DNA of 64,000 bases from an uncultured Pseudomonadales bacterium (lineage in GTDB: Bacteria > Patescibacteriota > Microgenomatia > UBA1400 > PJMF01). The notes under the pieces were generated by a model. The model ran no database searches, was not told the origin of the DNA, and saw nothing but the letters and a program-made list of their open reading frames with translations. The stretch covers positions 117,452-181,451 of the forward strand of contig CAZUHV010000002.1 in assembly GCA_964620965.1 (NCBI GenBank). Reading direction: 5' to 3'. Of the stretch, positions 4,337 to 59,972 are shown piece by piece; within the stretch, counting starts at the first letter, position 1, and every line of letters starts with the position of its first letter. The position numbers and the translations under genes are program-made.

Positions 4337-4672
4337 TCAAGATAGCTCTAAATAGGACTTTTTGATCCAGTTGACCAGCTCTTGATCAACTTCTCTTGCT
4401 TCACTTAGGCGAATAGTGTTATGAAATCTATTGGCAGAAACTTGCTCGGTTTTAGTAACTCTTGAAGATTTTATAGCTTCAGTAGTGACAATATTAAGAT
4501 CAAGCCATTTGGTTTTAGGATGCACACCAAGAAAAGCAACTCTGCTTACTATGTGAATTGAAGTTTTTTTATGCTCTATCTTAACTGGTCCAAGCTTTTC
4601 CACACTTTGCATAATTGCCTGGTAGATGGCCATTACTTCTAAGTTTTTACCTTTAAAAAGTTGTTCTTCCAT
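4337..4672 (-). CDS. hypothetical small protein (possibly a DUF1801/DUF5655-like fold)
   Basis: A 111-aa ORF from MEEQLFKGK; the longer 125-aa form would overlap the next gene. No catalytic motif was recognised. Confidence 0.5.
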   Translation of the reverse strand: MEEQLFKGKNLEVMAIYQAIMQSVEKLGPVKIEHKKTSIHIVSRVAFLGVHPKTKWLDLNIVTTEAIKSSRVTKTEQVSANRFHNTIRLSEAREVDQELVNWIKKSYLELS

Positions 4673-4673
4673 A

Positions 4674-4991
4674 TTATCTTTTGTTACTGATCTTACCAAT
4701 AGTAGCGCCACCAATAATTCCCATAATCAGAATTGGGGCATAGGAACCCGTAATCATGGCCGTAGGAAAACTAATAAGCAAGCTGACAATAATGCCTTTG
4801 AGAAATCCTGGAACTGGCAATGAGACAAAGGGGATGAGGAATCCTATGGCGAAACGCTGGAGAAAGGCACTAGAAATCGCAAGTGATTTATTTTCAAATT
4901 CTAGTGGCAGCATGAGAAGTGAATCAACGAGACCAAATGAAATGCCATAGATTGTGGCTAGTAAGTAGTTGTTATTTTGATTGGTTTTCAT
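4674..4991 (-). CDS. hypothetical integral membrane protein (about 3-4 TM segments)
   Basis: A 105-aa ORF with hydrophobic segments (LLATIYGISFGLVDSLLMLPL, FAIGFLIPFVSLPVPGF, IIVSLLISFPTAMITGSYAPILIMGIIGG). Confidence 0.5.
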   Translation of the reverse strand: MKTNQNNNYLLATIYGISFGLVDSLLMLPLEFENKSLAISSAFLQRFAIGFLIPFVSLPVPGFLKGIIVSLLISFPTAMITGSYAPILIMGIIGGATIGKISNKR

Positions 4992-5177: not shown

Positions 5178-6218
5178 ATGAGAAAAAATCTAAATAATAC
5201 TTTTTATCTTTCTTTCTTGGCAATTTTGTTTGTTCTTGTGTTTTTAGCAACTCCTCAAAAAGCCTCTGCTGCCCAACTTACGGAAGGATATCTCAGACTC
5301 AATAGAATGAAAGCTTCAACTGCTACCGGAGGCACAGTCTGTGCAAAGATGGCAACAACAGCTGGAACAGACGCTAAAATAAAGGTTACTTTCCCAACAG
5401 GCTTTACAGTAAACTCTACTGCAAGCAACTGGACTGTTACCACTTCCAATCTTCCAGAAAATGGAAGTGCAATGCCAGGTATAGATACTGCAACTGCAGT
5501 ATCTGGACAAACAGTAACTTTCCCGATCTCAGACATTTCTTCAAACTCAACACTATATTGTTTTAACTTTGCAAGTTCTAGCACATTAACTACAAGTACA
5601 GCAGGAAACGACAAAACGGGTTCTATCTCTGTCACTACAAGTGGTGACTCAGAAATAGATGGTGGTATTTATGCAACCTCAGTTATCTCTGATGACCAAG
5701 TAGTTATTACTGCTACTGTTCCTGCAACATTTAGTTTCGCCTTAGGATCTAACACTCAATCACTCGGAACACTTTCAACTGGAAGTGTAAGCTCAGGATC
5801 TGGTGTGAGTGTCACAATTGGAACTAATGCTGGTAATGGTTGGATTGGTTGGGTACTCAGTGCAAATGCCGCCCTTAATTCTGCTGCAACAAGTGATGCT
5901 ATTTCTACGACTGGCTCTGTAGATAACTCCCCTAGCACTCTCTCTGCTGGAACCGAAGGATATGTTTTAGATGCAGATCTTACTTCCGATTCTGCGACAA
6001 GTGGCACTGGAAGTGTGACAATTGATGCAGAATATAATGGCACAACAACAAGTCAAGGTGGAACCCTTTCGACAACATTTACAGAATTCGCCTCTGCAGA
6101 TGGACCAACAGATAGTGACGTTATCACACTTGTCCCTAGAGTTGCAATTTCTGCCTTAACCCAAGCTGCTACAGATTACACTGACACTCTCACAGTTGTT
6201 GCTGCTGGACACTTCTAG
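5178..6218 (+). CDS. secreted Ser/Thr/Gly-rich cell-surface protein, paralogue A
   Basis: Signal peptide MRKNLNNTFYLSFLAILFVLVFLATPQKASA|AQ, then low-complexity beta-rich sequence ending ...ATDYTDTLTVVAAGHF. The C-terminal roughly 100 aa are paralogous to 8864..9907. Confidence 0.7.
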   Translation: MRKNLNNTFYLSFLAILFVLVFLATPQKASAAQLTEGYLRLNRMKASTATGGTVCAKMATTAGTDAKIKVTFPTGFTVNSTASNWTVTTSNLPENGSAMPGIDTATAVSGQTVTFPISDISSNSTLYCFNFASSSTLTTSTAGNDKTGSISVTTSGDSEIDGGIYATSVISDDQVVITATVPATFSFALGSNTQSLGTLSTGSVSSGSGVSVTIGTNAGNGWIGWVLSANAALNSAATSDAISTTGSVDNSPSTLSAGTEGYVLDADLTSDSATSGTGSVTIDAEYNGTTTSQGGTLSTTFTEFASADGPTDSDVITLVPRVAISALTQAATDYTDTLTVVAAGHF

Positions 6219-11835: not shown

Positions 11836-14800
11836 ATGCATATGCTCTTCCAACAACTCGCAAAAATTAAACTTAAGAAAAAAATACTTGTTAAGTCAAC
11901 AAGATTTGTTTTAGCACTCTGGTTTATTATTTCTAACTTTTTGTTTGGCTTTCCAATTGACTACATTTTAAAAACACCAGTTGTGATTCAACAAGCGAAA
12001 GCAAATTCAAACACCTATGACTTTACTGACTGTGGCAGCACCTGTGATACTGACACCGGGTGGTGGGCATCTGACGATGATGTCGATCAGTTTCCGTTTG
12101 GTGGAGTTACAGCAAATCGAAACACACATGCAGAAGCAGACGATACAAACTATTCTAATATGGCAAACTCAGATGATACTTATGCAGTAGCAACTAATCC
12201 AAGCACTGGAGATGAAGTATTCAGCTGGTTTGAAATGACCATTACTGAAACGCCAAGCACTATTAAACAACTTGACTTTACTTTTGAAGGGTATCCTAAC
12301 ACTACTGCCTCACCATTTCAAATTTATGTCAAAACCGCCGCTGGTGCCTATGAATCTGATGCTTCATGGACTGCGCTTTCTGGACCAACAACAATTGCAG
12401 CTGGTACTGACACAACGATAACTCGTACACTCAAAGATAATATTACTGATTACATCGATGGAAATGGCAAAATAGTTTGGGGTGTCTACCAATCTGTATC
12501 AGCGCTTACCGTTAATATCGACTACGCAAAAATTGACGTTACATACCATCCAGTTGATTTAGAAGGATACAGATGGAGAAATGATGACGGCAACGAAACT
12601 GGCGCTACTTGGCTGGCAGATCAAGACAGCAATATTACTCAGCCAACAGCAACCAATACTAGACTGCGCACACTCATTAACTCAACGGGTACCGCTGATC
12701 CAGATACAAGCCAATATAAACTTGAATATAAACGTTCTACTGACAGTACTTATGTCCCAGTCGAGGTCACAACTCCCACAGATGTCACACCGACAATAGA
12801 ATCATGGTCTTCTGGTGCTTCAACTACAACTAATGCGTCTACTCATGCCATCACAATGCCTTCTGGAATTACTGCTGGTGATTTGCTTATCATAGTTTTT
12901 TCAACAGATGGTGTCGCAGATATTACCATCACAGCTGGTGATTGGATTGAACTAAGTCAAGCTCAAGGAAGTGGCGTTTCTAGTGGTATTTTTTATAAAT
13001 TTGCAACGGGCTCTGACACTGCAACGGTTGCAACTGGTTCAGAACAGACTTCCCATATTGTCTATAGAATTAGTGGTGCTAGTATGCCATATATTGCCCA
13101 AACAACTGGAAATAGTACTAACTCAGATCCACCAAATTTAGATACTGGCACTTCTCGAAACTATTTGTGGCTTGCTACTGCAACACATGATTCTACTGTT
13201 GTTGCATCAGCTGCGCCAACAAACTACTCAAATCTACATACCCAAGCTGCTGCAGGAACTGGTGGAGCATCTACGAGTACTGCAGAACGAGCTGCAACTG
13301 CCTCAAGCGAAAACCCAGGTACTTTTACTAGCAATACAGAGCAATGGGTTTCTTTTACAATTGCAATTCCTTCTTCAAGTATGGGAATACATTGTGCAAC
13401 CGCTCCAACAACCCAAGGTACAACAAGTGTTGTTATAAACTATCCAACGGATATAGCTGTCGGTGATCTCATGGTTCTGGGCATTGCAAATAAACATACT
13501 CCAAATGGTCCAACAACTCCCACTGGCTGGACTGCTGCCTCAAACTACCAAGCCTCAGGGAGTGGAGGTATTGATGGTCTAGACAGTGGAAGTGTGTACT
13601 CGTCAGTTTATTACAGAATTGTTGATGGTACAGAAAAAGGTACTTTTACTGTGAGTGTTCCCTCTGGAAATGCATCTATTGGCAGAATTTTGACGTATCG
13701 AAAGGAAGTCGGCAAAGAATGGGATGTTGCCATGTCAAATGGATCAGACAATACTCCAGATACCTCTTGGTCAATCACTGCTGGTTCTGACCCTGGAATA
13801 ACTGCTGGAGACATGGTCTTAGCGGTCAGTGCAATGAATACTGATCCCTATGGATATAACACACAAACCTTAGCAGCAACTGGCGTAACTTTTGACAGTG
13901 CAGAAAAAGAAGTCGGTGAGACAAATAGTACTGCTGGTAATGACCTTGAAATTGTTTTTTCAAACCATTTTGCGATTTCTGGCACCAGTAGTGCTGCTCC
14001 AACATACACTATGACAGCTAGTGGTTCTACTGCCAGTGGTCCTGCTGGAGCAACTGTTTTTGTGAGAATCCGCCAAAGAACTGCTCCAATCACTTTGTCT
14101 GCAAGTACTCATATTACTGCAAGTGGTGATAATACTACTGCTTTATTAACTCCTCCAGCAGGAAAAACTACTGGTGACTTTCTTACTGGTCGTATGCAAG
14201 ATGATGAAAATCCCGCAGATACTATTAACCTCTCTTCTAGCCAATACACAGAACTAGAATGGAATATTATTGCAACAAGTACGGCTGTGAATGATGAAAT
14301 TTACCAATTTAGAGTAACTGTAGGAGGTGTGCCAATTACTACTTACTCTGTAACACCACAGTGGACAATCGGTACTGCTGGAACGGCAGACCTTAATCAA
14401 ATTCATTACCGCTGGAGAAATGATGATGGCACAGAAGGATCATCTGGCTGGTACGATTCAAACTGGGTGTATAGAAAAAAGCTCACAATTGATAATACAG
14501 ATGTGGCAGGTAGTTCTAACCTCACCAACTTTCCTGTCTTGATTAACTATACACACGCTGATTTAAAAGATACAACCAACTCTGGTCACGTAGCACAATC
14601 AGATGCTGGTGATATTCTGTTTACTAACTCTGCGGGTACTAAACTTGACCATGAAATTACCAAATATGTGCCATCAACAGGTCAAGTAATTGCTTGGGTA
14701 GAAGTTGATGTTTTAGACTATGACGATGACACAGAAATTTATATGTACTATGGTTACGGTGCGGCTAGTGACCAATGGAATATAAGCGGAACTTGGAGCA

Positions 14801-16584
14801 ATGGCTATGTTATGGTGCAACATTTTAACGAAACTTCAGGAACTCACTTTGACTCTACTTCCAATAATAATGATTCAACCTCTGTGACTGTCACAACACA
14901 AGGTACTGCCACAGCCCAAATTGATGGAGCTGATGATTTTAATGGTTCTAATAACTATGTTGCCGTTGGTGATTCCAATTCACTAGATGTTACAAATTTT
15001 ACTATTTCTGGATGGTTTTCTATTGATACATTTCCTGGAACAGATCAATACAATAATATTCTTGATAAACAAGCCTATTTCCTTGAAGTAACAGATAACG
15101 ACGAATTTGACTGTGGAGTATACGATGGAAGTTTTTCTGAACATAACTCTGGTACCGCAAATCTCTCAACCGGAACTTACTACTATCTTGCCTGTGCATA
15201 TGATGATACGGGGGATACTGTTAGATTATATAAAAATAGTACTGAAGTATTAAATGAAGCTGCAACCAAAACACCAGCAACAAATAATATCGATATTGGT
15301 ATATACGCTCTTAGCGGAAATTTAGGCCAACAGCTCGACGGTCAAGCTGATGAGCTGGTTCTATCTAATGTCGCCCGTTCTGCGGATTGGCTCAACACCG
15401 AATACAACAACCAAAGTAATCCTGGAGTTGGAGGCTTTCTCACCAGTATAGGCACTGAAGAAACCGAAGGAACGGGCGCAACCTGGTTAGCGAATGAAGA
15501 CACGGCAGTTACAGATATTGCTAAAGAAACAAACGTAAGAATAAGATTTATGGTTTCTAATGAAGGTGGTGCTACATCAGATGCTACAGCATACCAATTA
15601 GAAGTTGCAGAAACTGGTACTTGTAGTGGTGGAACATATGCTGCTGTCCCAACTGACACGAGTGGAGACTGGCAAGTTTCGGCCTCAGCACATTTTACAG
15701 ACGGAGATCCCACAACAAATATTGCAAGTGGTCTAGCAGATGAAAACACAACTTTTGTTGCTGGACAAATTAAAGACACTGGCAACACTACAGGAAATAT
15801 CACATTAGCAGATACAGAATTTACAGAAATAGAGTTTTCCATTCAAGCTACAACCAATGCTACTGACGGTGGCTCGTACTGCTTTAGATTAAATGGTGCA
15901 GATACGTTCACTGAATACGCACAAGCCACACTCGAGGGAGGGGCAAGCCCCGTTTTTTCACTGAGTGCCTATCGATTTTATGATCAAACAGCTTCAGAAA
16001 ATGTCACAAACCCTTGGGGAAATCCTACTATTGCTGAAAATACACTACTTGCTCTTCTGCCAGCAACTAACACTCCTCCAGGAAATAGAGAAGATATAAG
16101 ACTAAGAGTTGGCATATCAGTTAGTACTGGGGCACTCTCCGCAACGAGTCAACAATTTAAATTACAATACAAGTCAGGCACTGATGCAAACTGTACTACA
16201 GGGTCATGGACTGACGTTGGAACGTCTATTAGTAGTGAAACATGGAGATACTCTACAACAGGTATCACTGACGGTACAACGCTGACAGCTCTTAAATTAT
16301 CTGGAAGTGATGTATTAGGCGTGTATGTAAAATCAAATCCAAGCGCAACAAACCCAAATGCTGTAGCTGTTGGAGAAACAGTTGAATATGATTTCAACTT
16401 TAAAGGCTTTAGTGCTGCATCAGCAACCACATATAGCTTTAGAGTTGTCGAAAGTGATGGAACTCCTTTAACAACATACACCTACTGTCCGACTCTTACA
16501 ACAAAAGCCGCTACAGAACAAGAATTACGGCACGGAAACGTGTTTTCTAATGAGACAGAACAAGGATTTACCCGTGCAAATTAG
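11836..16584 (+). CDS. giant (1582 aa) surface protein with Ig-like repeats and DUF2341 and LamG/concanavalin-like modules
   Basis: N-terminal TM FVLALWFIISNFLFGF. Repeated domain-start motifs appear: EGYRWRNDDGNETGATW, IHYRWRNDDGTEGSSGW and GTGATWLANEDTAV. A DUF2341-like segment reads WVYRKKLTIDNTDVAGSSNLTNFPVLINY...GDILFTNSAGTKLDHEI...IYMYYGYG. A LamG-like segment follows: FNGSNNYVAVGDSNSLD...FTISGWFSID...YYLACAYDDTGDTVRLYKNS. Confidence 0.8.
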   Translation: MHMLFQQLAKIKLKKKILVKSTRFVLALWFIISNFLFGFPIDYILKTPVVIQQAKANSNTYDFTDCGSTCDTDTGWWASDDDVDQFPFGGVTANRNTHAEADDTNYSNMANSDDTYAVATNPSTGDEVFSWFEMTITETPSTIKQLDFTFEGYPNTTASPFQIYVKTAAGAYESDASWTALSGPTTIAAGTDTTITRTLKDNITDYIDGNGKIVWGVYQSVSALTVNIDYAKIDVTYHPVDLEGYRWRNDDGNETGATWLADQDSNITQPTATNTRLRTLINSTGTADPDTSQYKLEYKRSTDSTYVPVEVTTPTDVTPTIESWSSGASTTTNASTHAITMPSGITAGDLLIIVFSTDGVADITITAGDWIELSQAQGSGVSSGIFYKFATGSDTATVATGSEQTSHIVYRISGASMPYIAQTTGNSTNSDPPNLDTGTSRNYLWLATATHDSTVVASAAPTNYSNLHTQAAAGTGGASTSTAERAATASSENPGTFTSNTEQWVSFTIAIPSSSMGIHCATAPTTQGTTSVVINYPTDIAVGDLMVLGIANKHTPNGPTTPTGWTAASNYQASGSGGIDGLDSGSVYSSVYYRIVDGTEKGTFTVSVPSGNASIGRILTYRKEVGKEWDVAMSNGSDNTPDTSWSITAGSDPGITAGDMVLAVSAMNTDPYGYNTQTLAATGVTFDSAEKEVGETNSTAGNDLEIVFSNHFAISGTSSAAPTYTMTASGSTASGPAGATVFVRIRQRTAPITLSASTHITASGDNTTALLTPPAGKTTGDFLTGRMQDDENPADTINLSSSQYTELEWNIIATSTAVNDEIYQFRVTVGGVPITTYSVTPQWTIGTAGTADLNQIHYRWRNDDGTEGSSGWYDSNWVYRKKLTIDNTDVAGSSNLTNFPVLINYTHADLKDTTNSGHVAQSDAGDILFTNSAGTKLDHEITKYVPSTGQVIAWVEVDVLDYDDDTEIYMYYGYGAASDQWNISGTWSNGYVMVQHFNETSGTHFDSTSNNNDSTSVTVTTQGTATAQIDGADDFNGSNNYVAVGDSNSLDVTNFTISGWFSIDTFPGTDQYNNILDKQAYFLEVTDNDEFDCGVYDGSFSEHNSGTANLSTGTYYYLACAYDDTGDTVRLYKNSTEVLNEAATKTPATNNIDIGIYALSGNLGQQLDGQADELVLSNVARSADWLNTEYNNQSNPGVGGFLTSIGTEETEGTGATWLANEDTAVTDIAKETNVRIRFMVSNEGGATSDATAYQLEVAETGTCSGGTYAAVPTDTSGDWQVSASAHFTDGDPTTNIASGLADENTTFVAGQIKDTGNTTGNITLADTEFTEIEFSIQATTNATDGGSYCFRLNGADTFTEYAQATLEGGASPVFSLSAYRFYDQTASENVTNPWGNPTIAENTLLALLPATNTPPGNREDIRLRVGISVSTGALSATSQQFKLQYKSGTDANCTTGSWTDVGTSISSETWRYSTTGITDGTTLTALKLSGSDVLGVYVKSNPSATNPNAVAVGETVEYDFNFKGFSAASATTYSFRVVESDGTPLTTYTYCPTLTTKAATEQELRHGNVFSNETEQGFTRAN

Positions 16585-29806: not shown

Positions 29807-30286
29807 TTATGATATATTTATAATAATAAATTTGGTCTCTCCAGTTGGAGTTTGAACAATAACTTGATCGCCAACTTTTTTACGCAATAATGCTTTTCCA
29901 ATTGGGCTTGTATAAGAAATTTTTCCTTTCGATGGATCTGATTCATGTTCACTCACAATTAAAAACGTTTTTTGCTTTTTAGTTTCGTCTAACTTCTCAA
30001 CCGTTACCGTACTCCCAAAATCAATCAAACCTTTAGGAGTAGCCTGTTTGGGAGCTGGAAAACCTTGTAGTAAAAGTTGTTTGTATCTTCGAAGTTCCCT
30101 TGAAACATTTCCAAGCTCAAACTTAGCATATTTGTACGCACCATTTTCTGAAAGATCTCCCATTGCACGAGCTTCTACTAAACGTTGCATCACTTGTTCT
30201 CGTTCTTCAGAAAGTTCTGTAACTTTTTGTTGCATCTCCTTATATTTTTTAGGAGTAAATGGAATTGTCTTTAATACTTTTTGCAT
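29807..30286 (-). CDS. greA: transcription elongation factor GreA (copy 1)
   Basis: GDLSENGAYKYAKFELGNVSRELRRYKQLL (coiled-coil tip) and a C-terminal FKBP-like domain ...GDQVIVQTPTGETKFIIINI. Confidence 0.85.
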   Translation of the reverse strand: MQKVLKTIPFTPKKYKEMQQKVTELSEEREQVMQRLVEARAMGDLSENGAYKYAKFELGNVSRELRRYKQLLLQGFPAPKQATPKGLIDFGSTVTVEKLDETKKQKTFLIVSEHESDPSKGKISYTSPIGKALLRKKVGDQVIVQTPTGETKFIIINIS

Positions 30287-54584: not shown

Positions 54585-55073
54585 ATGACAAATACAAAAA
54601 TAGCCATAAATAACCAAATCGAAATAACAAAAGAGGGTTTAGAAGAAATTAAAGCTGAACTCCAAGAGCTTGCTGACGTCAAGTTACCAGCAATTATTAA
54701 GCGTGTAGCAAAAGCCCGTGAACATGGAGATCTCTCAGAAAATGCAGAGTACCATTCTGCTCGAGATGACCAACAGCTTATGCAAGCACGTATCGATGAA
54801 CTACAAAACATTGTTGACAATGCTGTCGTAGTTAAAAACACCAGAAGCCAAAACAAAGTTGGCATGGGCTCTGTTGTAACAATTCAAAAAGTTGGTACTA
54901 AAAAAGATAAAACTGTTTCTATCGTTGGCGAATTCGAAGCTGACCCAGCAGCAAATAAAATTTCTAGTGGATCTCCATTAGGGGCTGCTTTAATCGGTAA
55001 GAAGAAGGGTGACCGTATTTTAGTGAAAGCTCCAGCGGGGGAAATAGAGTACGAAATTATAAAAATTCAATAA
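54585..55073 (+). CDS. greA: transcription elongation factor GreA (copy 2)
   Basis: REHGDLSENAEYHSARDDQQLMQARIDELQN and a C-terminal FKBP-like domain. Confidence 0.8.
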   Translation: MTNTKIAINNQIEITKEGLEEIKAELQELADVKLPAIIKRVAKAREHGDLSENAEYHSARDDQQLMQARIDELQNIVDNAVVVKNTRSQNKVGMGSVVTIQKVGTKKDKTVSIVGEFEADPAANKISSGSPLGAALIGKKKGDRILVKAPAGEIEYEIIKIQ

Positions 55074-55118: not shown

Positions 55119-56186
55119 ATGCTAGATGTAACAAAATTATTTATGAAAATTGTCCAGATTGATAGTGTTTCTGGTGAAGAAGAAAAAATGGCACACTACC
55201 TCCTTGATTTCTTCAAAAATGATTGCAAACTCCATCCGACAATTGACTCAAGTAATAACGTGTTTATTCAAACACAAGGAGTTGGAGAACCAATCTTTTT
55301 CAACTGTCATTTAGACACTGTAGAACCTGGCAGAAACATTGTTCCAGTACTCAATAACGGCATCATTACAAGTAAAGGAAATACTATACTTGGGGCAGAT
55401 GATAAAGGGGGAGTAGCAGCTTTAATGTCTGCCATTCAGTATATTTCCCAAAACAAAAATACTTCTTGGAGACCACTCGACATTTTGTTTACAACTTCAG
55501 AAGAAACAGACTCTTATGGTGCAAAAAATTTTGATAAATCAAAAATTAGAGCAAAAATTGGCTATATTTTTGATGGTACTGGGCCAGTTGGGGACATCAT
55601 GTCTGCAGCACCATATTACGCAACATTTGACATTAAAGTGCGTGGTAAAGCTGCTCACGCTGGATACCCTGAAAAAGCTATCCCAGCTCTTCCAGAAACA
55701 CTCAACTTAATTCAGTTACTCAGGGCACTTCGAACAAAAAATGCTCTCGTTAACATTGGAGAAGTGTATGGGGGAACAGCAAGAAACACCGTCATTGGAA
55801 CAATGCATATAAAAGGAGAAATTAGAAGTTTTTATAAAACTACATTTGAAAAAACTGTGAGAGAGGTTAAAAAAATTGTAGGTCAAAAATACAACTGTGA
55901 ACTCTACTCTGAACTCATTATTGTTAATCCAGGATATATTTTTGATAAAAAAATTCTAAACCCAGTTAAGAAACAACTTGAGACCTTTTTAAACAGAAAA
56001 GTATCTGTAAAAAAATCTTTTGGAATTTCTGATGCAAACATATTCAATGAAGATCTTAAAAAACTCACTGTCATTAACTTGGGTGACGGAAGCTCTCACG
56101 CACACACAACAAGAGAGTCAGTTACTGTAGAAGCACTCGAAACAATGCGTGATTTAATCCTAAAACTAGCCAAAAATCAGGAGTAA
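55119..56186 (+). CDS. M20/M42-family metallopeptidase (deacylase/aminopeptidase-like)
   Basis: FNCHLDTVEPG, GADDKGGVAALMSA and SEETDSYGA are the metal-ligand motifs of the M20 family. Confidence 0.7.
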   Translation: MLDVTKLFMKIVQIDSVSGEEEKMAHYLLDFFKNDCKLHPTIDSSNNVFIQTQGVGEPIFFNCHLDTVEPGRNIVPVLNNGIITSKGNTILGADDKGGVAALMSAIQYISQNKNTSWRPLDILFTTSEETDSYGAKNFDKSKIRAKIGYIFDGTGPVGDIMSAAPYYATFDIKVRGKAAHAGYPEKAIPALPETLNLIQLLRALRTKNALVNIGEVYGGTARNTVIGTMHIKGEIRSFYKTTFEKTVREVKKIVGQKYNCELYSELIIVNPGYIFDKKILNPVKKQLETFLNRKVSVKKSFGISDANIFNEDLKKLTVINLGDGSSHAHTTRESVTVEALETMRDLILKLAKNQE

Positions 56187-56190
56187 AATA

Positions 56191-58323
56191 ATGTATAATC
56201 AAAACACAGAAAATCAAAAAAATAATCAAGCAAATCAAACAAAAAGGACTGCCGGTATGTCAAGAATGGATGAAACAATTCAAGCTAAAACTGAAAAACG
56301 CGAGCAACTTGAATCTTTAGGAATTAACGTACACCCATATTTATATAATAAACAACAAACTATTGCTCAAGCGAGAGATATGATGGATGAATCAGTACAA
56401 ACTGCTGGTCGCATAATGTCTATTCGTGCGCATGGAAAAGTTATTTTTGCTGACCTTCAAGATTCTACTGGAAATATTCAAATCATGGTCCGAAATACCG
56501 AAGTCTCAGAAACTGATTTTAATTGGCTTAAAACTTTGGTTGATAGAGGAGATTATCTTGGTGTTGAAGGTACTGTCACAACTACAAAAACTGGTGAAGT
56601 AACTATTTTAGCCTCAAAATATGAACTGTTAAGCAAAGCACTCCGCCCAATTCCAACAGAATGGAATGCTGCAGACAACAAAGAAGCTCGTTTTAGAAAA
56701 CGATATGTCGATATGCTCATTAACTCTGATACAAAACGAGTTTTAGACGCACGTTGGCTGATCACAAAAGAAGTAAGAAGATTCTTACAAGATCAACATG
56801 ACTTTGTTGAAGTCGAAACTCCAATTTTACAACCTTTATATGGTGGAACCAACGCAACTCCTTTCACTACTCATATGAATGCATTAGATTGCGATTTTTA
56901 CCTCCGCATTGCTCCAGAACTATACCTAAAAAGACTCATTGTTGGAGGATATGACAGAATCTTTGAAATTGCTCGTAACTTTAGAAATGAAGGAATTGAC
57001 CAAACACATCAACCAGAATTTAGCATGATTGAATGGTATGAAACCTATGCTGACTACCACAGAATGATGAATGTTGCCGAAGATTTAGTCCGCCACCTGG
57101 TGTTTCAGCTCTATGGTAACTACACAATTACTGTGGGTGATGTTAAAGTAGACGTTGAAGCTCCATGGCCAAGAGTTCGTATGGATGAAGCTCTTATACA
57201 ACATGCAAACATTGATTTTGCAAATCTTTCTGATGAAGAAGTGCAAAAATTGATGGAAAAACATTCAATTAAATTGAAAAGCGCTTATACTAGAGGTAAA
57301 GCTTTATTTGCGTTATTTGATGAGTTAGTCACCCCACACTTAATTGCTCCAATTTGGATTATCGACTATCCAAGAGATATTAGTCCACTTTCAAAACAAC
57401 ATCGAAAAAATCCAGAACTCGCTGAAAGATATGAAGCATATATTGGTGGTAAAGAACTCGCTGATGGTTGGAGCGAGATTGTTGACCCAATTGACCAAAG
57501 AAATATCTGGGAAAACGAACAAGCGAATATGCGACATGGCGACACCGAAGCTCATCCACTTGATGAAGATTTCCTTGAGGCTATGGAACATGGTATGCCT
57601 CCACTTGGTGGCATTGGAATGGGCATAGACCGCTTAGTGATGTTCCTAACAAACACTTGGAGTATTAAGGAAGTAATAGCATTTCCAACATTACGGCCTT
57701 TAAACCCACTCACTTCACAAAATGCATCTGGAAACTCAACTAACCATACACAAACTACTCAAAATGGGGCAAGCTCAATAAATGATTCTAATATTACTTT
57801 ACCTCCAAGAGAAGAAGCAGAAAGACTTGTTGAAAAGTATATTACAGACGAGGCACTCAGAAACCATTGCAGAATGGTTGCTCAAGCCATGCAGGCATAT
57901 GCAAAAAAGCTAGGTGTAAACGAAGAGCTATGGTATCAAACAGGATTGTTGCATGACCTTGATTGGGAAATGTACCCAGATGAACATCCAAACAAAGCAA
58001 TCTCTGATATTCTTACCAATTATCCACAAGAATTATTAGATGCAATCGCAGCCCATGCTCCAGACAGAACTGGAAAAGAACCACAAACACAATTAGAACG
58101 CTATCTATTTGCTTGTGACGAAATTTGTGGCTTTATAAATGCTGTCTCACTAATGCGTCCAGAAGGTTTTGAAGGAATGAAACCAAAATCAATAAAAAAG
58201 AAACTTAAAACTAGACAATTTGCTGCCAACGTAAGTAGAGAAGACATTGCGGAAGGGTTAACATTGATTGGTAAATCAGAAGATGAGCATTTTTCCTTCT
58301 TGATTAATGTATTTAATAAATAA
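56191..58323 (+). CDS. lysS: lysyl-tRNA synthetase (class II) fused to a C-terminal HD-domain hydrolase
   Basis: Residues 1-540 are LysRS (OB fold, motif 2 FRNEGIDQTHQPEFSMIEWY, motif 3 GGIGMGIDRLVMF). Residues of about 560-710 carry H...HD (NHCRMVAQAM...GLLHDLDWE) and a second His cluster. Confidence 0.85.
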   Translation: MYNQNTENQKNNQANQTKRTAGMSRMDETIQAKTEKREQLESLGINVHPYLYNKQQTIAQARDMMDESVQTAGRIMSIRAHGKVIFADLQDSTGNIQIMVRNTEVSETDFNWLKTLVDRGDYLGVEGTVTTTKTGEVTILASKYELLSKALRPIPTEWNAADNKEARFRKRYVDMLINSDTKRVLDARWLITKEVRRFLQDQHDFVEVETPILQPLYGGTNATPFTTHMNALDCDFYLRIAPELYLKRLIVGGYDRIFEIARNFRNEGIDQTHQPEFSMIEWYETYADYHRMMNVAEDLVRHLVFQLYGNYTITVGDVKVDVEAPWPRVRMDEALIQHANIDFANLSDEEVQKLMEKHSIKLKSAYTRGKALFALFDELVTPHLIAPIWIIDYPRDISPLSKQHRKNPELAERYEAYIGGKELADGWSEIVDPIDQRNIWENEQANMRHGDTEAHPLDEDFLEAMEHGMPPLGGIGMGIDRLVMFLTNTWSIKEVIAFPTLRPLNPLTSQNASGNSTNHTQTTQNGASSINDSNITLPPREEAERLVEKYITDEALRNHCRMVAQAMQAYAKKLGVNEELWYQTGLLHDLDWEMYPDEHPNKAISDILTNYPQELLDAIAAHAPDRTGKEPQTQLERYLFACDEICGFINAVSLMRPEGFEGMKPKSIKKKLKTRQFAANVSREDIAEGLTLIGKSEDEHFSFLINVFNK

Positions 58324-58700
58324 AAGTCGGGCCTCGTAGCTCAAAGAGTAGAGCAGTGCGATTTATCGCGAAGATACAAGTGCAATTCTTGTTGGGTCCA
58401 CAAAAATCAAGATGGCTAAACCAAAACTAACATCTCATTTGCCGTCATGATATAATTATCGAACAAAAGCATTTGAAACAGTTAGCAACTGTTGATGGTT
58501 CGCACCAATGCTGCTTGGGGTAAAAAACCAAGCCGGGTAAGCCCGTAACCGCAGGAAAAAGCTAATTTAGAGGTGGCACCGTCTGCGCTTTTGTGAGAAA
58601 TCACAAAACAGACCCTCTCAAGTATCAAGTATATTGGTACTGGGAAGTGTTTATTCCTTTAAAAAATATTCCCATACCAATACAACAAGAGGAGGTCACA
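58324..58700 (+). promoter_or_regulatory. T-box-like riboswitch leader of serS
   Basis: A stem-I-like helix GGGCC...GGGTCC lies at 58328-58398 and carries AGAGTAGAG (a GA/AGTA-like element) and an AGU in a loop. AATTTAGAGGTGGCACCGTC at 58564-58583 resembles the T-box consensus AATTAGGGTGGNACCGCG. A strong SD AAGAGGAGG lies at 58686-58694. Confidence 0.5.
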
Positions 58701-59972
58701 ATGTTGGATATTCAATACATTCGTGATAACAAAGACGTAGTAAAAAAAGGTTGTGAAAACAAACAGCTTGATTCTAGTGTAATAGATGAGTTGCTTTCTG
58801 TAGATAAAAAAAGGAGAGAATTGCAGGTTCAGGTCGATGAGCTGAGAAGACAAAGCAATGAACATGCAAGAATTATTAAAGAGGCAGTTCATAGCGGTAA
58901 CAAACCAACTCCTGAGCAAATTGAAAAAGGCAAAGAAATTAAAGTAAAAATTCAAGAAATTGAACCAGAACTTAAAATTGCAGAAGAAGAATTTGAAAAA
59001 CTTATGTATCAGATTCCTAATGTTCCTGCAGAAGATGTCCCAGTTGGGTCAGATGAATCTGGAAATGTTGTTGAACGTGAAGTTGGTGATAAACCAAACT
59101 TTGATTTCGAACCAAAACAGCACCACGAGCTTATGGAAAACCTTGATATGTTGGATACAACTAGAGCAGTAAGAGTTGGTGGTTTCAGAGCTTACTTCCT
59201 TAAAAATGACGCACTTTTGCTTGAACAAGCCGTTTTAAACTATGCGTTAAAACTATTAGTAACCGAAGGCTTTACTCCAATGTCTGCTCCAATTTTAGTA
59301 AATGATGAAGCAATGTGGGGTACAGGGTACTTCCCATGGGGGAGTGAAGATCATTACAAAACCCAAGATGGACAAATCTTAGCCGGAACTGCAGAAGTGG
59401 CACTCACTGCATACAGAATGGGAGAAACACTCACAGAAAAAGAACTTCCAGTTAAAATGTGTGGACTCTCTCCTTGTTTTAGAAGAGAAGTAGGAACTTA
59501 TGGCAAAGATACACAAGGAATTATCCGTGTCCATCAATTTAATAAAGTTGAACAAGTTGTTTATACTGTTGCAGACGAAGCAGAAACAAGAAATTGGCAT
59601 GAAAAAATGACAAACTTTTCAGAGACTCTTTTACAAAATCTTGAGTTGCCATATCAAGTTTTGCGAATGTGTACAGGTGATATGGGGGCAGGACAAAGAA
59701 AAAAGTATGACGTTGAAACATGGTTCCCAGGACAAGGAAAATACCGAGAAACCCACTCTGCAAGTTATTTTAATGACTTCCAAGCAAGAAGACTTAATAT
59801 TAAGTATCAAGCAAAAGACGGTACTACCAAATACGTCTATACATTAAATAATACTATGGCTGCAACTCCTAGACTACTTGGAGCAATTATTGAGAATTAT
59901 CAACAGAAAGACGGTAGTATCAAAGTACCAAAGGTTTTGGTACCATTTATGGGTAAAGAAGTAATAAAATAG
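58701..59972 (+). CDS. serS: seryl-tRNA synthetase
   Basis: MLDIQYIRDNKD is followed by an N-terminal coiled coil and class II motifs (FRREVGTYGKDTQGIIRVHQFNKVE, GQGKYRETHSASYFNDFQARR). The start at 58701 was chosen because of the SD. Confidence 0.9.
   Translation: MLDIQYIRDNKDVVKKGCENKQLDSSVIDELLSVDKKRRELQVQVDELRRQSNEHARIIKEAVHSGNKPTPEQIEKGKEIKVKIQEIEPELKIAEEEFEKLMYQIPNVPAEDVPVGSDESGNVVEREVGDKPNFDFEPKQHHELMENLDMLDTTRAVRVGGFRAYFLKNDALLLEQAVLNYALKLLVTEGFTPMSAPILVNDEAMWGTGYFPWGSEDHYKTQDGQILAGTAEVALTAYRMGETLTEKELPVKMCGLSPCFRREVGTYGKDTQGIIRVHQFNKVEQVVYTVADEAETRNWHEKMTNFSETLLQNLELPYQVLRMCTGDMGAGQRKKYDVETWFPGQGKYRETHSASYFNDFQARRLNIKYQAKDGTTKYVYTLNNTMAATPRLLGAIIENYQQKDGSIKVPKVLVPFMGKEVIK

Follow-up and report, generated by a model that had tools for sequence, protein, structure and literature searches.

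What does an HD-superfamily domain do at the end of a lysyl-tRNA synthetase (LysRS), and is its presence there more than an accident? The question is raised by a 64,000-nucleotide (nt) stretch of DNA, hereafter the window, from contig CAZUHV010000002.1 of an assembly labeled as an uncultured Pseudomonadales bacterium and classified as Patescibacteriota in GTDB. A gene on its forward strand, at 56191..58323, encodes a single uninterrupted open reading frame (ORF) of 710 amino acids (aa) with an ATG start in the ORF list. A reading of the letters alone (the original prediction) had described this gene as a LysRS fused to a C-terminal HD-domain phosphohydrolase. The ORF is present exactly as claimed, and Pfam and NCBIfam detect both a LysRS and an HD-superfamily domain in this one gene. 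Our analysis indicates that the coupling of this HD subfamily to LysRS is specific, has arisen repeatedly, and is independent of the LysRS class. As for the function, we tentatively favor the clean-up of LysRS by-products.

The class II LysRS part is complete (residues 24-503). The NCBIfam model NF001756 for lysine--tRNA ligase matches residues 28-503 at 598.6 bits, against a cut-off of 468, and TIGR00499 matches the protein at 531 bits, against a cut-off of 427.6. No second LysRS was found within the 64-kb window. Judged by family membership, the gene should encode a working class II LysRS that lysylates tRNA(Lys). Many homologues begin at the equivalent of M23 (MSRMDE...). The extension downstream of the synthetase had been estimated at approximately 150 aa; it is in fact ~207 aa, composed of a 35-aa linker and a 175-aa domain. 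The Pfam HD model (PF01966) matches residues 558-644 at 30.8 bits (versus 22) in the full protein and at 33 bits when the domain alone is used. The match to the HDIG model TIGR00277 is marginal (28.3-31.4 bits against a cut-off of 27.6), and the local motif is HDLD, not HDIG; the model matches all 53 stand-alone relatives.

The full-length AlphaFold2 (AF2) model has a mean predicted local distance difference test score (pLDDT) of 85.7 and a predicted template modeling score (pTM) of 0.62. It consists of two confident modules, with residues 500-529 joining them at pLDDT below 50. The isolated HD domain is modeled as an all-helical bundle with a pLDDT of 94.9. The low pLDDT of the linker and the pTM of 0.62 point to a flexible tether, and as modeled, the LysRS and HD modules are joined by this disordered segment and not by a rigid, fixed interface.

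A trivial explanation of such a gene is that adjacent lysS and HD genes were misread as one through an error at the stop codon. In the sister lineages, HD is indeed a separate ORF, and its start coincides exactly with the boundary of the domain. However, this separate-gene state is seen solely with class I LysRS, and the fused state is widespread. A whole-protein search found the LysRS-HD architecture (670-735 aa, 62-96% identity) in at least 120 protein clusters, drawn from independent assemblies in four data sources: NCBI, JGI, ENA, and Logan. Their hosts are Patescibacteria (Woesebacteria, Pacebacteria, and Microgenomates). Where these proteins have any database name, it is merely "lysine--tRNA ligase". 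A protein identical to that of the window is also present in NCBI and Logan, on contigs of up to 351 kb. Loci from 80 GTDB species representatives that encode a homologue of the HD domain were surveyed; 13 of them have a class II LysRS, in every case as a single continuous LysRS-HD ORF. The frameshift check proposed with the original prediction was also performed: one frame is open across the junction, and the other two contain stops, so that there is no split into two genes. The linker length varies in frame, from 18 to 82 residues among 64 fusions. Sequencing, assembly, or frameshift error is excluded as the source of the fusion, and we assign the misread-gene explanation practically no weight. 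Across the same 64 fusions, the mean column identity is 0.755 for the LysRS part, 0.744 for the HD part, and 0.21 for the linker. The HD part is thus conserved as much as the LysRS part, which indicates that the HD domain is under purifying selection.

The residues expected of an active HD enzyme are retained. The H-x28-HD motif noticed earlier corresponds to H559 and H588-D589, with exactly 28 residues between them, and the cluster HAPDRTGKE lies at residues 622-630. The prediction was to be rejected if the H, HD, H, H, D series were lacking; the series is present, in this order, and does not vary among 64 fused and 53 stand-alone homologues. In those sequences, H559, H588, D589, D591, H599, H622, D643, E644, K670, and R683 are invariant, and W592, E593, R626, T627, R656, P657, K671, and H700 are kept in at least 90%. 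The order H..HD..H..H..D is the sequence diagnostic of a dinuclear HD site and is shared by YqeK, HD phosphodiesterases, and HD oxygenases (PMC8177086). The HD domain matches this extended motif in full. It is probably a catalytically competent, two-metal phosphohydrolase, with H599 as one putative metal ligand. The conserved basic patch R656-P657...K670-K671 may bind a polyanionic substrate.

With the HD tail alone as the query, 1391 homologues were obtained, nearly all of which are stand-alone Patescibacteria proteins of ~176 aa whose names are generic (e.g., "HDIG domain-containing protein"). A profile search, which covered 1.84 billion representatives, gave a subfamily size of 169 clusters (50% identity) at E <= 1e-30 and 1656 at E <= 1e-10. 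No significant relative was found in the PDB by sequence, either with the domain or with the 53-sequence profile. The Foldseek comparison of the HD domain with the PDB yielded weak matches (E >= 7e-3, template modeling (TM) score 0.4-0.56), none standing out, which include the HD domain of the beta subunit of glycyl-tRNA synthetase (GlyRS), the YqeK family (SP1746), PgpH, small alarmone hydrolases, YpgQ, and dNTPases. The nearest families by sequence are HD domains fused to nucleotidyltransferases. In NCBIfam, all 53 members match PRK07152 (NadD-YqeK; best E 7e-7), and 48 of the 53 match the DVU_1551 NTP transferase (best E 1.6e-8); these matches are weak but the most consistent ones. On these comparisons, the domain represents an uncharacterized HDIG subfamily, outside every characterized family.

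The coupling of this subfamily to LysRS is best seen in the genomic context. In Patescibacteria, the fusion occupies a conserved slot in the order atpC, greA, LysRS, HD, serS, and secA. Stand-alone HD homologues that are 60-71% identical to the domain of the window occur in the same slot, and there the LysRS is of class I (PF01921). The survey shows no exception to this partition: class II LysRS is fused to HD in 13 of 13 loci, and class I LysRS is separate from it in 22 of 22. The separate HD gene lies downstream of class I LysRS with a gap of 0-26 nt in 20 of these 22 loci. In the other two (L020 and L056), a NIF3 gene is located between them. This NIF3/DUF34 gene encodes 259-260 aa (L020, 4195-4974; L056, 3826-4608), and in L056 a 106-aa MazG-like gene (4628-4948) is inserted at this site as well. 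In locus L014, the start of the separate HD ORF corresponds exactly to the "LP.R" motif with which the HD domain begins in the fusions.

Close relatives differ in the class of LysRS. The HD domain of the fused class II locus L036 is 87% identical to that of the class I locus L014, and its SerRS is 85% identical to that of the class I locus L013. Between L021 and L012, which also differ in LysRS class, HD is 83% identical and SerRS 79% identical. With HD and SerRS orthologous and the LysRS class different, it is considered that the synthetase was exchanged more than once while the HD gene was kept. This comparison, which relies on nearest-neighbor identities of HD and SerRS, implies repeated in situ non-orthologous displacement between class I and class II LysRS at one Patescibacteria locus. 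Several loci of the Patescibacteria type come from metagenome-assembled genomes (MAGs) labeled "uncultured Pseudomonadales", "Vitreimonas sp.", or "Saprospiraceae". Their synteny is of the candidate phyla radiation type, so these labels look wrong or the bins contaminated.

A fusion in the reverse order was found in ~16 clusters from Bacteroidota. In these proteins of ~715 aa, the HD domain (residues 2-171) precedes the OB fold and the class II core. The hosts include the cultured Arcicella sp. DC2W / A. gelida (P0409) and a Mucilaginibacter MAG (P0415); other entries from this phylum are P0307 and P0389 (L085, 5001-7148). All family-invariant HD residues are kept, and the genomic context is unrelated to that in Patescibacteria, including a Por_Secre_tail gene. 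By its domain order and context, the N-terminal HD-LysRS is an independent fusion event. In the best 150 representatives, wherever an aminoacyl-tRNA synthetase (aaRS) is fused to this HD subfamily, its top NCBIfam family is always LysRS.

The linker is also the site where a third module, B3_4, DUF2000, or NUDIX, is inserted in some lineages. The LysRS-B3_4-HD proteins are 917-923 aa in length (e.g., MBU0974812.1; P0150, P0158, and P0400), and their B3_4 module matches the editing fold of phenylalanyl-tRNA synthetase (PheRS) with E 1e-24. LysRS-DUF2000-HD (833 aa; P0396; L087 and L088, 5001-7502) was seen on 16 or more contigs, and its genomic context is a third one, unrelated to the other two. 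DUF2000 is presumably similar to PTH2, although a PDB sequence search found no relative and did not confirm the similarity. LysRS-NUDIX-HD (935 aa, P0337) is seen on one contig only. In the GTDB set, five class I LysRS genes bear a C-terminal B3_4 domain and are followed by the HD gene: L001 (3598-5991; 797 aa; PF01921 and PF03483, E 2e-23), L010, L011, L018, and L080. No description of this class I LysRS-B3_4 architecture was found. The nucleotide pyrophosphohydrolase MazG is fused to an HD domain of the LysRS-linked subfamily in P0272 (310 aa), and MazG-like or NUDIX genes flank the LysRS/HD locus in L089, L056, and L031.

No description of the LysRS-HD fusion, or of this HD subfamily, was found in full-text literature searches. 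Among the known systems, YqeK (COG1713, TIGR00488) was the family named in the original prediction. It is a hydrolase of Gram-positive bacteria that acts on Ap4A (diadenosine tetraphosphate) and Ap4N and cleaves Ap4A symmetrically to two ADP. Both are all-helical members of the HD superfamily of ~180-190 aa with the ordered H..HD..H..H..D motif, and in both, the HD doublet begins 29 positions after the first His. The ligand positions of YqeK are H21, H50-D51, H83, H109, and D127, and its activity against Ap4A is established (PMC8177086). Ap4A is also the chief by-product of LysRS. The weak sequence matches of the subfamily and the weak fold matches of the domain to YqeK do not amount to a YqeK-type domain: the window protein has no TIGR00488 match at E <= 1, and 20 of the 53 relatives match it with a best E of 1e-3. 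The signature is HDLDWE here and HDIGK in YqeK, and YqeK is linked to nadD, not lysS. A relationship to HD-GYP, the other family suggested for comparison, did not hold either. The alignment shows neither the HH doublet nor the GYP triad, and the sole fold match is 9rbz (E 0.48).

The arrangement that is conceptually closest is NadD-YqeK (PRK07152), in which an adenylyl-transferring enzyme is covalently or operonically tied to an HD hydrolase. YqeK fused to the adenylyltransferase NadD destroys the wrong dinucleotide products of NadD (PMC9426524). It is also the best-populated weak sequence match of the HD subfamily, but the match is limited to the H...HD region, and the partner here is LysRS instead of NadD. 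GlyRS beta (7eiv, 7yse) carries an HD-fold module within an aaRS and is the top PDB fold match, with marginal similarity (7eiv_C, E 7e-3, TM 0.50); its HD doublet is lost (Ser393-Lys394), in contrast to the catalytic residues of the window domain, which are all invariant. Hint, acting on lysyl-AMP, and ApaH and Nudix, acting on Ap4A, are hydrolases of LysRS-made substrates in trans, but their folds (HIT, metallophosphatase, and Nudix) are unrelated. No covalent fusion of Hint, ApaH, or Nudix to LysRS was found in the literature searched. LysX, the mycobacterial MprF-LysRS, resembles the window protein in that its class II LysRS bears an additional enzymatic domain using or handling a LysRS product, and differs in that its partner is an N-terminal membrane lysyl-phosphatidylglycerol synthase. 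The NCBIfam LysX model scores 533.9 bits on the window protein, under its cut-off of 742, and covers the LysRS part only. Hydrolases appended to an aaRS, and HD hydrolases paired with a nucleotidyl-transferring enzyme, are known kinds of arrangement, of which the LysRS-HD pairing appears to be a new form.

How could such a hydrolase serve LysRS? The HD domain would act on phosphoanhydride nucleotides made as side products of lysyl-adenylate chemistry. The candidate substrates are Ap4A, Ap4N, diadenosine triphosphate (Ap3A), and possibly released aminoacyl-adenylate. The tether would hold the hydrolase beside the source of the by-products and lead to their local destruction, in parallel to YqeK, fused or clustered with NadD. 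LysRS is a principal producer of Ap4A and Ap4N (PMC13627108), and lysyl-AMP made by LysU is hydrolyzed by Hint (PMC3130732). The NUDIX and MazG partners belong to nucleotide pyrophosphatase families and point to nucleotide pyrophosphates, and the disordered tether fits a locally acting scavenger. The intact catalytic residues, the specific and recurrent linkage to LysRS with fusions at either end, and the nucleotidyltransferase-fused HD domains as nearest sequence families lend it indirect support as well. A tethered phosphohydrolase removing Ap4A-type or adenylate by-products of LysRS, with a putative substrate, is therefore the reading we prefer, in line with the functional idea of the original prediction, and we give it somewhat less than even confidence. 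Several points weigh against it. The HD subfamily is linked as tightly to class I LysRS as to class II. The class I enzyme requires tRNA for adenylate formation and is not known to be a source of Ap4A. The B3_4 partner has an aminoacyl-tRNA hydrolase-type fold, suggesting a tRNA-centered theme, and DUF2000 presumably has one too, although the PDB sequence search did not confirm it. In the survey, 45 of the 80 homologues, mainly from Balneolaceae, have no LysRS nearby, and their neighborhoods contain only membrane and outer-membrane proteins, which give no functional clue. The adjacency within Patescibacteria is partly inherited synteny. The fold matches to YqeK (8jk9, 8wmy, 2ogi, 3ccg, and 2o08; TM 0.42-0.50, E 0.008-0.34) are no better than those to other HD families, such as GlyRS-beta HD, PgpH, and small alarmone hydrolases. 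The middle His residues are at HD+11 and HD+34 here, in contrast to HD+33 and HD+59 in YqeK, and the LysRS-linked subfamily does not conserve the Arg that HD phosphatases usually carry close to their first His.

The partner domains raise the idea that clean-up is one half of a wider system. HD with the optional B3_4, DUF2000, and NUDIX modules might constitute a quality-control apparatus of LysRS, combining by-product removal with aminoacyl-tRNA editing, in which HD was kept through the class replacements and two independent fusions. We regard this as rather unlikely. LysRS is generally considered to have no separate editing domain. The main rival of the clean-up reading, which we consider similarly doubtful, directs the HD domain itself to the tRNA: it would act on or with tRNA(Lys), within a LysRS quality-control set with B3_4 and DUF2000, as a 3'-end phosphoesterase, as a 2',3'-cyclic phosphodiesterase healing the acceptor end, or as an acceptor-arm binding module like the GlyRS beta HD. 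Healing of the tRNA acceptor end is performed by the HD domain in CCA-adding enzymes of class II. The best PDB fold match is the HD domain of GlyRS beta (7eiv_C), which in E. coli contacts the tRNA acceptor arm (PMC8464048). The same explanation is favored by B3_4 and DUF2000 in the linker and the class I LysRS-B3_4 fusions preceding the HD gene, by the linkage to both LysRS classes, which have tRNA(Lys) in common and differ in fold and adenylate kinetics, by the conserved basic patch, and by a conserved tRNA-like element directly 3' of the gene. However, the HD doublet of GlyRS beta is lost (Ser-Lys), and every ligand is invariant here, which makes a purely binding role unlikely. Nucleotide hydrolases give fold matches that are just as strong, the NUDIX and MazG partners and the many stand-alone members unlinked to any aaRS suit small-molecule substrates better, and the PTH2-likeness of DUF2000 was not confirmed by the PDB sequence search.

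Small-molecule substrates would also suit a generic enzyme without a mechanistic tie to LysRS, either a house-cleaning hydrolase of the nucleotide pool ((deoxy)nucleoside triphosphates) or a second-messenger hydrolase ((p)ppGpp or a cyclic dinucleotide). On this view, the genes would be neighbors through a gene order inherited in streamlined genomes, and the fusion would have begun as a neutral stop-codon loss and then persisted. The order atpC-greA-LysRS-HD-serS-secA is conserved as a whole, so the adjacency in Patescibacteria is not independent evidence of coupling. Over half of the surveyed homologues have no link to LysRS, the fold matches include small alarmone hydrolases, PgpH, YpgQ, and dNTPases, and MazG and NUDIX are classic house-cleaning enzymes. 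What speaks for a tie to LysRS is the independent fusion of opposite order in another phylum and a different context, LysRS as the sole aaRS partner in the best 150 representatives, the HD gene that stays while the LysRS class changes (L036 versus L014/L013; L021 versus L012), and LysRS-DUF2000-HD in its third, unrelated context. We judge the generic role to be unlikely. Far less probable is a non-hydrolytic domain, either a nucleotide- or metal-binding sensor that regulates LysRS or a mixed-valent diiron oxygenase like MIOX, PhnZ, and TmpB acting on a lysine-related compound. The conserved D591, W592, E593, and H700 are unusual and are not explained by a phosphatase, and the motif H..HD..H..H..D is also used by HD oxygenases (PMC8177086). 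The top sequence and fold matches, however, include no similarity to MIOX or PhnZ, and the domains found as its partners are hydrolases. O2 chemistry would also be unexpected in Patescibacteria, most of which are anaerobic fermenters. Local removal of LysRS by-products thus stays the preferred, if tentative, reading.

The coordinates of the gene, its parts, and its neighbors are listed in Table 1.

Table 1. Parts of the LysRS-HD gene and neighboring features in the window.
Feature	Position	Strand	Basis or remark
Whole LysRS-linker-HD gene	56191..58323	+	710 codons plus stop; ORF list
N-terminal low-complexity extension, residues 1-23 (low confidence)	56191..56259	+	pLDDT <50; homologue N-termini
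OB-fold anticodon-binding domain of class II LysRS, residues 69-147	56395..56631	+	PF01336, E 5.7e-18
Class II catalytic core tRNA-synt_2, residues 164-501	56680..57693	+	PF00152, E 8e-87; NF001756
Flexible S/T/N/Q-rich linker, residues 504-537, ~35 aa	57700..57801	+	pLDDT <50; low column identity
HDIG-type metal-dependent phosphohydrolase domain (predicted), residues 538-710, ~175 aa	57802..58320	+	PF01966, TIGR00277, AF2
H559, first His of the H...HD...D motif, invariant	57865..57867	+	Alignments
H588-D589-L-D591-W592-E593, signature HDLDWE	57952..57969	+	H588, D589, D591 invariant; W592, E593 >=90%
H599, invariant, candidate second-metal ligand	57985..57987	+	Alignments
H622-A-P-D-R626-T627	58054..58071	+	H622 invariant; R626, T627 >=90%
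D643-E644, last Asp of the HD motif, invariant	58117..58122	+	Alignments
Conserved basic patch R656-P657 ... K670-K671	58156..58203	+	Alignments
PepT-like M20 peptidase gene (context only)	55119..56186	+	4 nt upstream of the LysRS-HD start
tRNA-like element	58330..58400	+	6 nt after the LysRS-HD stop; Rfam tRNA 37.1 bits vs gathering 29
serS, conserved downstream neighbor (context only)	58698..59972	+	ORF list, synteny

The M20 peptidase gene upstream is restricted to the sub-lineage of the window (L005 and L089), and in L089 it overlaps the LysRS-HD gene by 8 nt. A role for it in the lysine pathway, as DapE or LysK, was considered and rejected: the PepT-like model TIGR01883 matches best, the scores are below every cut-off, and the gene is lineage-restricted.

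The tRNA-like element downstream can be folded into a cloverleaf, with an "anticodon arm" of 5 bp closed by a UUUA tetraloop. Its T loop is UGCAAUU, it has a C3.U70 mismatch and a discriminator A, and there is no CCA. ARAGORN called no tRNA at 58330-58400. The element is kept in the 81%-identical relative L089 (5119-5189), where the substitutions preserve pairing. Its possible identities are a mimic of tRNA(Lys), a degenerate tRNA, and a processing signal for the 3' end of the mRNA. At 5202-5665, between LysRS-HD and serS, L089 has a canonical tRNA as well as a MazG-like gene (PF12643) that encodes 138 aa. In the window, only the apparent first ~12 codons of this MazG-like gene are seen, at ~58405-58450 ("atggctaaaccaaaac..."). 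This residue suggests a deletion in the window, from which the canonical tRNA is also gone.

The leader of serS, ~160 nt in length, is conserved between the window (~58440-58600) and L089 (~5670-5800) and contains a T-box-like motif, "AGAGGUGGCACCG". A T-box riboswitch was suspected from the motif "GGUGGCACCG" and was rejected, as there is no Rfam T-box match at E <= 10; no other Rfam family matches the leader at this threshold either. Elsewhere in the window, there are a second GreA-like gene (29813-30265, minus strand), 35% identical to the GreA at 54585-55073, and a very long ORF of 1582 aa (11836-16584, plus strand).

Whether Ap4A is a true alarmone or mainly a damage by-product of aaRSs is a long-running question. 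If the preferred reading is true, the presence of a hydrolase on the synthetase itself would argue that, at least in these organisms, Ap4A is a by-product to be destroyed at the source. Both activities would be on one polypeptide and separable by point mutation, offering a clean system for this question. The N-terminal version is present in cultured Bacteroidota (Arcicella), which makes genetics feasible. The class-independent, repeatedly evolved coupling and its B3_4, DUF2000, and NUDIX variants are likely to surprise specialists, and the analysis exposes unusual LysRS architectures, namely class I LysRS-B3_4, LysRS-DUF2000-HD, and LysRS-NUDIX-HD. The switching between class I and class II LysRS at one locus bears on the non-orthologous displacement of essential enzymes. 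Whatever the substrate is, the finding defines a large uncharacterized HD subfamily and gives a strong lead to its function.

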